A DNA stretch of 3,743 nucleotides from Naegleria gruberi (Eukaryota), in NCBI GenBank assembly GCA_000004985.1, contig GG739210.1, one strand, 5' to 3'. Within the stretch, counting starts at the first letter, position 1. Each line of letters opens with the position of its first letter. Below the pieces are notes generated by a model that saw only the letters and a program-made list of their open reading frames with translations, made no database searches and was not told the origin of the DNA. The position numbers were made by a program, and so were the translations under genes. Positions 243 through 1,952 of the stretch are shown here, piece after piece.

Positions 243-693
243 CTGATTGATGGTTTAAATATATAACAACAATGTATAATAATGATGAATAATAACATCT
301 TACAACAACAATAATAACACATTTGATAATATGATGGTAATGATGATCATTTGGTGCTTTTTGGTATTGTTTGGACAATGATCATCCTATTGATGCAATC
401 TACCGATCCGGTATTGATGGTTATCGACTTCTTTCTTGTTGTTTTGCCTTGCTTAACAACAGTATATACCCTGTATCCATCAATCAACAAATCTACTCGG
501 CCATGATGATGGTAACATTGATCCTAACAAGAATAATTCCTCTAGATCCAAGTACATGACTGCTACTGGTGCTATTCAACATCCACAACAACAACAAAAA
601 TCTTTTTGTGTTCTAATGTGATTTTAAAACACAAACATTGGAAAATCCTTTTCAGAAAATCCTGGAGATGGTTGTGAATTTTGTAAACCTATA

Positions 694-713
694 AATAATA
701 TTTAAATATTATT
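694..713. repeat. 20-bp perfect palindrome AATAATATTTAAATATTATT (A/T only).
   Basis: The sequence 694-713 equals its own reverse complement. It lies in the AT-rich spacer downstream (minus sense) of the LYS2-like block. Confidence 0.5.
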
Positions 714-809
714 ATTACAATGATATGGTTTTTTTTTGGAATTTTGTTATTGTTGTTGTAAAATCATATGATGAAAATGTCCAATATAATTATATTTCCA
801 TTTTTTTTG

Positions 810-1952
810 TTATATTGTTGGTGTAATTTTTACAAAATAGTATTTAACAAAATATTTATTTATAATATTAAAGATATCCAGTCCAAATATTTTGGGCCTG
901 TGAAACAGTGTAATAGGAAAATATTGTTTCATCCATGGATAATAGTGAGTGAGAGGACCGTGTCTTCCCAAAACACCCTTTGGAATACCAGTACTTCCTG
1001 ATGTATAGGTGCAAACAGCAAAGTCATCTTGTGTAATTTTAACATTCAAAGTTGGATCTTCGCTCAAATTGGAATCGTTATAATCAGAGTAGACATTCTC
1101 ATTAAGAATATCAGTCATGGATTTCAATACTGTTACAAACTTGGTATTTTCATTGATAAAATCAATGACAGACTTTGGTAATTGACCAGCAGCTTCAATT
1201 AAAATAACTGCGGATGGTGTTGAAACTTCCAAACAAGTGATAATTCTATCGGCTGGATAAGCAGGATCTAACATGTTGAAAATTGCACCACATTTCAATG
1301 TAGACAAGATGGCCAACACAACTGGACAAGATCTGTGACCAAAGATTGTCACAACCTCCTGTCTCTTCAATCCCTTATGAAGTAAGTGTCTTGATAACTG
1401 ATTGGAAACTCGATTCAATTGTTCAAAGGTAACACTTTCATGATTATCAACCATGGTAATTCTATCTGGTGTTTGTTTAGCTTGTTCTTGGAAAATTTCA
1501 TGAATTGGACCAACGAAATCGTTATTCAAAGCTTTATCAGGGTGTGGTAAAACCTTCTTGGCATATTCAGTCACCAAACTGATATCATAAATAGAGACAT
1601 TGCAATTACTCGACAATACTTGTTCAGAAACTAATTTCAATTGATTCAATAATTCAGCCATTCTCAATTCTGTGAACAAGTTATTTTGATAAATGATACT
1701 GAGTTCGTTAGATTGAGTATTGTAGTGTAAATTTAAATCAACATTCGAAATAGGGAATGGTTTGTCCACCTTAGTGAATGGACCGGCATAGGAACTATAA
1801 GAAACTTGAACGAGTAAATTTGTATCAATATTACCAGCATTAGCATTGTTAGACAAAAATTGTTCGAGAATATTCTTTACATTATTGAAATATGATAAAT
1901 GATTCAATGAATCATTATATGATTGTTGTACATTGTAACAAATTAACTCCAA
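810..1952 (-). pseudogene. LYS2: Lys2-type L-2-aminoadipate reductase gene fragment. The homologous core is ~918..1945 (about residues 85-440 of a ~1390-aa Lys2): Lys2 N-terminal region plus adenylation motifs A1, A2 and A3 only. The 3' stretch 810..917 is a non-homologous AT-rich tail. There is no ATG start (the track M is TTG at 1950-1952) and the first upstream in-frame stop is at 1977-1979.
   Basis: The translation closely matches yeast Lys2 from memory. DFVGPIHEIFQEQAKQTPDRITMVDN matches Sc DFVGCIHDIFQDNAEAFPERTCVVETP. The A1-like VTFEQLNRVSNQLSRHL matches Sc FTYRDINRTSNIVAHYL. The A2-like [18 protein letters not shown] matches Sc LKAGATFSVIDPAYPPAR. AAGQLPKSVIDFINE matches Sc AAGQLDQLVEDYIND. 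A3 [16 protein letters not shown]...YYPWMKQYF (plus ~918-995) matches Sc [30 protein letters not shown]. Immediately after KQYF the frame reads PITLFHRPKIFGLDIFNIINKYFVKYYFVKITPTI*, which has no similarity to the expected ...NLTENDKFTMLSGIAHDPIQRD..., contains CTG codons and is low-complexity. No A4-A10, PCP or reductase-domain motifs appear in any frame of 1..905. I list the ORF as a pseudogene or gene relic rather than an intact CDS. Confidence 0.6.

Follow-up and report, generated by a model that had tools for sequence, protein, structure and literature searches.

What became of the gene whose first part lies on the minus strand of Naegleria gruberi contig GG739210.1, and why does its similarity to Lys2-type alpha-aminoadipate reductases stop partway through the adenylation (A) domain? 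We analyzed the whole contig (GenBank assembly GCA_000004985.1), a window of 3,743 nucleotides (nt) that is an entire scaffold, small and unplaced, with no gap or N run. Its overall guanine-plus-cytosine (GC) content is 30%, and that of the N. gruberi NEG-M genome is 33% (PMC8296547 Table 2). The top database match of the minus-strand open reading frame (ORF) at 810–1952 is P0001, a 283-amino-acid (aa) N. gruberi 'predicted protein' that is 100% identical to it. The P0001 model starts with MAELLNQ at nt 1661–1641, i.e. within the homologous region. Its start (1659–1661, minus strand) is the first in-frame ATG and is codon 98 of the open frame, with none between it and the stop at 1977–1979; the frame as a whole is open over 388 codons. 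P0001 consists of the stump of a ~1400-aa enzyme followed by 33 residues translated from spacer, and it should not count as an adenylating enzyme or as evidence for a working lysine pathway.

The Lys2-type homology occupies 909–1940 (minus strand), is open throughout, and corresponds to Lys2 positions ~102–455 of ~1390, i.e. the distal condensation-like domain and the first half of the adenylation core (motifs A1–A3). NCBIfam TIGR03443 (L-aminoadipate-semialdehyde dehydrogenase) matched aa 67–347 of the ORF at profile positions 153–453 of 1390, with a score of 211 bits (E = 1.9e-62). This is twice the score of the generic adenylation model (107 bits) and above every non-ribosomal peptide synthetase (NRPS) model, though short of the equivalog cut-off of 1030 bits. 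Pfam AMP-binding was matched over the first half of the domain only (ORF aa 154–344, profile 1–199 of 384). The word-index protein search did not recover fungal Lys2, and S. cerevisiae Lys2 was used as query instead; this query was Lys2p at 100% identity, and the search gave 120 yeast Lys2 proteins. A profile hidden Markov model (HMM) from 14 yeast Lys2 proteins scored 186 bits, with HMM positions 102–455 of 1396 aligned to nt 1940–912. Yeast Lys2 is 30–36% identical to the fragment over about 300 aa (BLASTP). A closest-relative HMM, built from 21 Lys2-like bacterial modules and 6 yeast Lys2, scored 288.5 bits.

HMM alignments show the Lys2-type core motifs A1–A3 to be present in the fragment. 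The A2 region (1254–1298, minus strand) aligns to LKAGATFSVIDPAYP of yeast Lys2 and to LKAGAAF.(L/V)LD.AYP of the bacterial Lys2-like modules; like Lys2, it does not have the Pro found in the 'YVPLDP' motif of NRPSs. Motif A3, the P-loop (975–1007, minus strand), is the final core motif present. Across Lys2 231–452, 47 of the 92 yeast-invariant residues are kept. The condensation-like part aligned to yeast HMM positions 102–230, with 8 of 12 invariant residues, and gave a weak Pfam Condensation match (profile 385–454 of 456). In a neighbour-joining (NJ) tree of 276 columns, a distance method applied here to long branches and with Lys2 sampled from yeasts only, 97 of 100 bootstraps placed the fragment as sister to 12 yeast Lys2. 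Fragment and yeast clade together were nested among bacterial Lys2-like modules, with ordinary modules as the outgroup. Per-domain phmmer searches gave up to 194 bits for single NRPS modules versus at most 154 bits for yeast Lys2. Because single modules of some bacterial NRPSs score as high or higher, 'Lys2-type clade' is the safe wording. With that nuance, the assignment to Lys2 made in a previous sequence-only reading of the window is upheld by the TIGR03443 score, the yeast identity and the bootstrap value, and on sequence grounds we classify the fragment as Lys2-type. An exhaustive representative search returned, as its top 150, giant multi-module NRPSs ranked on summed scores; that order was of no use as a ranking, but the search did yield the closest single modules. 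Among metagenome contigs, prokaryotic genomes and viral contigs no close relative was found, the best match having 30% identity.

Five profile comparisons end the homology between nt 921 and 909, and the two reaching furthest end at 909. The yeast Lys2 HMM alignment ends at nt 912 and that of the generic A-domain HMM at nt 909. The closest-relative HMM aligns with high posterior probability through the final residue, ending '...GRHGPLTHYYPWMKQYFPIT' / '...YFPIT' (nt 911–909). At the junction defined by these HMM ends (905–911, minus strand), the last aligned codon is ACA (Thr, 911–909) and the first non-homologous codon is CTG (908–906). The break sits between nt 909 and 908, in agreement with the breakpoint at ~905–918, after ...YYPWMKQYF, that the sequence-only reading had proposed, and refining it. 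Beyond the break point, relatives go straight on with DKFTMLSG(I/L)(A/S)HDP(I/L)xRD(M/I)FTPL. The block due right after the break (D455–D471, DKFTMLSGIAHDPIQRD) is invariant in 14 of 14 yeast proteins. Over Lys2 453–520, the frame of the fragment matches 2 of 50 yeast-invariant residues, with 48 gapped; over the carrier and reductase region, 7 of 288 invariant residues are matched and 276 are gapped. The cut falls at Pfam AMP-binding position 199 of 384, which is within the A-core fold and at no domain boundary.

Read past the break, the frame runs through 32 non-homologous codons to a TAA stop at 812–810, giving a tail (810–908, minus strand; peptide LFHRPKIFGLDIFNIINKYFVKYYFVKITPTI) that is AT-rich and has non-coding-like codon usage. 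Next to it lies an AT-rich spacer of 188 nt and 21% GC (622–809), between two convergent reading frames. GC content is 33.6% at 909–1940, 22.9% at 813–908 and 21.3% at 622–809. CTG is absent from the 343 codons of the fragment and from the 188 of the scaffold's other long ORF, but 2 of the 33 tail codons are CTG (nt 908–906 and 881–879), so that, as had been noticed from the letters, CTG occurs only after the conserved part. Codon-usage log-odds of the tail are –0.79 to –0.84 bits/codon, lower than in any 33-codon window of the fragment, where the minimum is –0.45, and much as in the flanks generally (mean –0.59 bits/codon). A stretch of 33 stop-free codons from nt 911 is unremarkable (P = 0.10, dinucleotide shuffles), and the tail gave no Pfam match and no match to the relatives' continuation. 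The drop in GC and the codon usage both agree with the earlier view that the continuing frame is translated AT-rich DNA. One likeness spotted by eye, between 'FGLDIF' of the tail and 'FGLD...RDIFTPL' of the relatives, was rejected: no HMM extends into the tail or reports it.

Is anything left of the missing domains? We ran three HMMs (that of yeast Lys2, one of 93 A-domain sequences and that of the closest relatives) at maximum sensitivity over six-frame translations of 1–911 and 1977–3176, and compared each with 200 dinucleotide shuffles. In no frame of 1–911 was a remnant of A4–A10, the carrier or the reductase found, the best scores being –5.3, –3.7 and –5.1 bits for the three HMMs; 144, 90 and 80 of the 200 shuffles, respectively, scored as well or better. 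The best scores in 1977–3176 were –2.8, –5.9 and –5.2 bits, none better than shuffles, and the full-length Lys2 HMM gave no match past position 455. A candidate for motif A8 spotted by eye, GRVDLLIDGYRV (minus strand, nt 523–467), scored –4.9 bits, with 90 of 200 shuffles better, and was likewise rejected. Pfam scans of the downstream frames gave no domain, and no Rfam family or tRNA was found on the scaffold. The sequence-only reading had stated that no remnant of A4, A5, A7 or A8 appears in any frame and had named frame-shifted A4–A10 remnants as the finding that would speak for gradual decay; with three shuffle-controlled HMMs, none appeared. Alignment is confident to the last residue, with no stop or frameshift, and these data support the clean junction that had been suggested rather than gradual decay.

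The other end of the fragment is different in character. Near 1950 the homology has no sharp break but fades between 1940 and about 1760. Upstream of it the frame has a stop-free extension (1941–1979, minus strand), without homology detectable by HMM and closed by the in-frame TAA at 1977–1979. An acceptor-like CTTTGTTTTATTGGAG, made up of a pyrimidine tract and an AG, ends at 1947; the yeast-HMM alignment starts two codons further on. The first ~100 residues of Lys2 were not found in any frame by HMM searches, which included 1977–3176.

How could such a stump have arisen? We favor, with a probability of about 0.5, a real and recently truncated Lys2-type gene relic abutting the 3' end of a convergent gene, most likely a dead fragment. 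A deletion or rearrangement with one end at 909/908 would have taken A4–A10 and the carrier and reductase domains, at least 2.8 kb, and would have brought the stump up against AT-rich spacer, at a point about 290 nt from the convergent gene's 3' end. The stump also lacks the first ~100 codons and a start codon. The frame reads 33 codons into the spacer to the first stop, and gene prediction thus produced the 283-aa model from an internal ATG. On this account the junction would be present in the genome, and not only in the assembly, and would have arisen in place. Adenylation requires A4–A10, and reduction requires a phosphopantetheinylated carrier and a reductase domain, as is established in Lys2 and NRPS enzymology. 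With no substrate pocket, catalytic A10 lysine, phosphopantetheine site or reductase, the predicted product cannot reduce aminoadipate, and the fragment is most likely non-functional.

An estimate of age comes from the intact frame. The homologous part (356 codons) contains no stop or frameshift, and a stop would result from 5.2–6.0% of the point changes in it. If the fragment were evolving neutrally, this bounds divergence at d < ~0.05 substitutions per site (95% bound), so the truncation, measured by neutral drift, would be recent. Truncation in the genome is favored because both ends of the gene are incomplete, because the DNA past the break resembles the native spacer of the convergent neighbour, and because a possible relic of a gene for ubiquitin-activating enzyme E1 lies nearby; its presence on the same scaffold fits a rearranged region. 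Like gene relics in general, the fragment is part of a parent gene without a usable start, but it carries no disabling mutation within the homologous part.

Several observations weigh against this account. The lack of a disabling mutation is one, as is the preferential keeping of yeast-invariant residues (47 of 92, versus ~33% overall identity); a gene that is whole in the organism and was broken only in assembly would be expected to show just such an open, constrained-looking fragment. The scaffold is also tiny and has no placement, and a GT sits 2–3 nt past the last aligned codon. No close relative from another Naegleria surfaced in the word-index search of the protein collection, which makes a gene that was functional until very recently somewhat surprising. 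Moreover, the query was the N-terminal fragment only, so a separate C-terminal piece could not have surfaced. Three readings fit the intact frame: recent truncation in the genome, an intact gene broken only in the assembly, and selection on the stump.

The second of these, in which the gene is intact in the organism and 909/908 marks a chimeric clone or a mis-join in a low-coverage scaffold, is unlikely in our estimate. It would suit a window that is a complete, very small scaffold, a fragment that is fully open and looks constrained, and a break that is codon-exact and without microhomology or duplication. Yet the sequence has no gap or N run, and a second artefact would be needed for the first ~100 codons and the start, which are also missing. 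In addition, the DNA after the break resembles local spacer leading toward a convergent coding-like ORF, in the normal layout of a gene-dense locus, and the 5.8-billion-protein collection holds no other N. gruberi protein overlapping the fragment. The third reading, that the truncated protein (a condensation-like stub plus half an adenylation core) is a selected product with a new role, we consider the most improbable of all those weighed here. The 388-codon open frame, the preferential retention of family-invariant residues and the existence of a gene model would fit it; the cut inside the A-core fold rather than at a domain boundary, and the non-coding-like codon usage of the C-terminal 33 residues, would not. 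No homologue of such architecture was found either, the sequence cluster of P0001 comprising one contig only.

Two further explanations place the missing parts elsewhere. An internal segment of a Lys2-type gene, from Naegleria or foreign, might have been copied or inserted here by transposon capture, as break-repair filler or by horizontal transfer. Both homology ends lie within the gene, and 600 nt off, on the opposite strand, there may be a short E1-like piece of an unrelated gene; among single-domain matches the closest are to bacterial modules, and no Naegleria orthologue surfaced. All of this would be expected of an ectopic piece. The flanks tell otherwise, with no target-site duplication, terminal inverted repeat or poly-A tail. 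Repeats resembling target-site duplications, which the sequence-only reading had proposed checking for around the fragment, were not found: the two junction neighbourhoods have no repeat of at least 8 nt in common, their single shared 7-mer is below chance expectation, and flanking inverted repeats, an A-run at the break and microhomology are absent. No transposase-like domain turned up. In codon usage and GC the fragment agrees with the host-like ORF on the scaffold and with the published genome GC of 33% (PMC8296547), searches of prokaryotic genomes and of metagenome and viral contigs gave no relative above 30% identity, and the NJ tree places the fragment with eukaryotic Lys2; we regard an insertion as rather unlikely. 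A phase-2 intron starting at the GT at 906–905, with the remaining exons beyond the scaffold end, is very unlikely. Its appeal is that this GT follows the last aligned codon by 2–3 nt, that the acceptor-like tract and AG end at 1947, two codons before the yeast-HMM alignment, and that the E1-like match likewise stops at a GT. But it is the sole GT nearby, and its context, GTTTCA, shares only the GT with the usual GTRAGT. The three HMMs found no continuing exon in the remaining 908 nt, so the intron would exceed 900 nt. Introns of N. gruberi average 203 nt, with 1.7 exons per gene (PMC8296547 Table 2), and an intron of this length would have to contain the convergent coding-like ORF; the annotators' model, for its part, reads through. 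A spliced continuation, which the sequence-only reading had named as evidence against a breakpoint, is excluded within the window by the lack of a downstream exon and the poor donor.

For comparison, we set the fragment beside known systems. Fungal Lys2 (TIGR03443; S. cerevisiae Lys2p, 1392 aa) is colinear with it over ~102–455 and shares Lys2-style A2 and A3 motifs, including AAGQL. The fragment, however, amounts to about a quarter of that protein, lacking the first ~100 residues, A4–A10, the carrier and the reductase, and its host is a heterolobosean amoeboflagellate, not a fungus. L-2-aminoadipate reductases of euglenozoans (euglenids and diplonemids) come from the same supergroup as Naegleria, the Discoba. 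They are full-length transcripts whose hosts are inferred to make lysine that way; the comparison with the Naegleria fragment is by taxonomy only.

Bacterial NRPS modules with Lys2-like A domains (P0166, from a Pyrinomonadaceae metagenome-assembled genome (MAG), and P0209, P0235 and P0135) gave the top single-domain scores. The ten Lys2-like modules whose source records we looked up scored 158–194 bits at up to 37.6% identity, and the two of them with a named source are from bacterial MAGs (Pyrinomonadaceae and Thermoanaerobaculia). These modules share GRHGPLTH(F/Y)xPW, HRS and EAAG(E/Q)LP with the fragment. They also carry ...ILGRHGPLTHFLPWL..., FTMLSGLSHDPLxRDIFTPL and TETQRAVSY, and their sequences show exactly what should follow the break. 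Unlike the fragment, they are internal in synthetases of 3300–5900 aa, behind complete condensation domains, and the tree puts the fragment with Lys2 instead. Separately, Lys2-like NRPS modules surround the eukaryotic Lys2 clade in the tree, an arrangement that may bear on a bacterial ancestry of Lys2.

Truncated unitary pseudogenes and relics annotated as short hypotheticals resemble the locus in several ways: a partial match to a multidomain protein, a start at an internal ATG, an end at a chance stop and a small unplaced scaffold. Compared with old pseudogenes, the retained part is unusual in having no stop or frameshift. The feature is of an ordinary kind, a truncated gene fragment on a small draft scaffold, and its added interest comes from the family and the host.

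What stands out most is that a heterolobosean should have a Lys2-type sequence at all. The alpha-aminoadipate pathway has been described for higher fungi and euglenoids. Alpha-aminoadipate reductase has been called a trait common to fungi and Corallochytrium (PMC8779187, citing Torruella et al.). A later survey reported L-2-aminoadipate reductase in 3 euglenids and 3 diplonemids and in 0 of 12 kinetoplastids (PMC7052976 Table S3), so presence followed by loss within Discoba has precedent. Our literature search, which did not extend to the N. gruberi genome paper, found no mention of aminoadipate reductase in Naegleria. A relic in a heterolobosean would be consistent with an enzyme present in early Discoba and lost repeatedly, and a broken Lys2-type sequence in such a host is a data point for a wider and older distribution and repeated loss.

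A more doubtful idea, which we advance tentatively, is that the fragment is a remnant, passed down vertically and inactivated only recently, of an alpha-aminoadipate lysine pathway in Heterolobosea. In that case a working Lys2-type reductase persisted in the Naegleria lineage until shortly before strain NEG-M, and Lys2, instead of marking fungi and their close relatives, would go back to the ancestor of Discoba (euglenids, diplonemids and heteroloboseans) or further. Given the open frame, sister strains in the N. gruberi complex may still carry an intact gene.

The spacer beyond the stump has features of its own. A palindrome at 694–713, the 20-bp one of the sequence-only reading, is exact and A/T-only (AATAATATTTAAATATTATT), and lies midway between the convergent stop codons. 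A palindrome as long arose in 0.15% of dinucleotide shuffles (P = 0.0015), although the hairpin is weak (–3.5 kcal/mol, z = –1.0); a 3'-end signal and a fragile site are possibilities. The duplicated motif GAAAATCCT does occur at 641–649 and 655–663, as had been described, but is not unusual (P = 0.15). With the poly-T runs, the T8 at 801–808 was placed correctly, whereas the other run is a T9 at 729–737, not 731–739, and so had been off by 2 nt. A 23-nt direct repeat, 750–772 and 3159–3181, is 78% identical (...ATGATT.T.A.ACAACAA... on the minus strand). Its copies lie just downstream of both minus-strand stops, that of the Lys2 stump and that of the long ORF at 3180–3743, and may be a shared 3'-end motif or a low-complexity coincidence.

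The convergent neighbour (475–621, plus strand), delimited by codon usage, ends ...QQQQKSFCVLM / QHPQQQQKSFCVLM followed by TGA at 619–621, a C-terminus of the CaaX prenylation type. Positions 475–618 (plus strand) have a log-odds of 0.75 bits/codon, the highest outside the two long ORFs. The ORF belongs to no Pfam family and has no database homologue, and probably represents the final exon of some unrelated gene. The stump faces the 3' end of this convergent gene, as is normal in a gene-dense locus. A Ras-like gene, perhaps frameshifted, upstream of the CaaX ending was considered and is unsupported, there being no Pfam hit in any frame or in a hand-spliced composite. A composite query of all flank ORFs gave nothing at E ≤ 1 in the protein collection. 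This ORF lies in a GC-richer island at 350–600 (37–39%, versus 20–30% around it), where open frames overlap on both strands and the coding-scored part is 475–618 (plus strand) only.

At the far end of the scaffold, a minus-strand ORF of 188 codons (3180–3743) runs off the scaffold end. It is coiled-coil-like and has weak colinear similarity to the shoulder and cap-helix of major vault protein (MVP): Pfam MVP_shoulder, E = 0.014; PDB MVP residues 628–748, E = 0.05. Searches gave no homologue of it in viral contigs, and none at E ≤ 1 among the 5.8 billion proteins of the collection, where it formed part of the composite query.

The E1-like piece lies at 2583–2657 (plus strand), within an ORF at 2484–2669. 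It consists of 25 aa, AIVEDDDSNNHIDFTTATSNLW, that match the SCCH motif of ubiquitin-activating enzyme E1 (Pfam UBA_E1_SCCH, E = 0.0025; S. pombe Uba1 797–821, E = 0.0016), values that are borderline after correction for the frames tested. The ORF is coding-like (0.44 bits/codon), and the E1 homology stops abruptly after 'SNL', at a GT. Either a second gene relic or a chance match could explain this motif.

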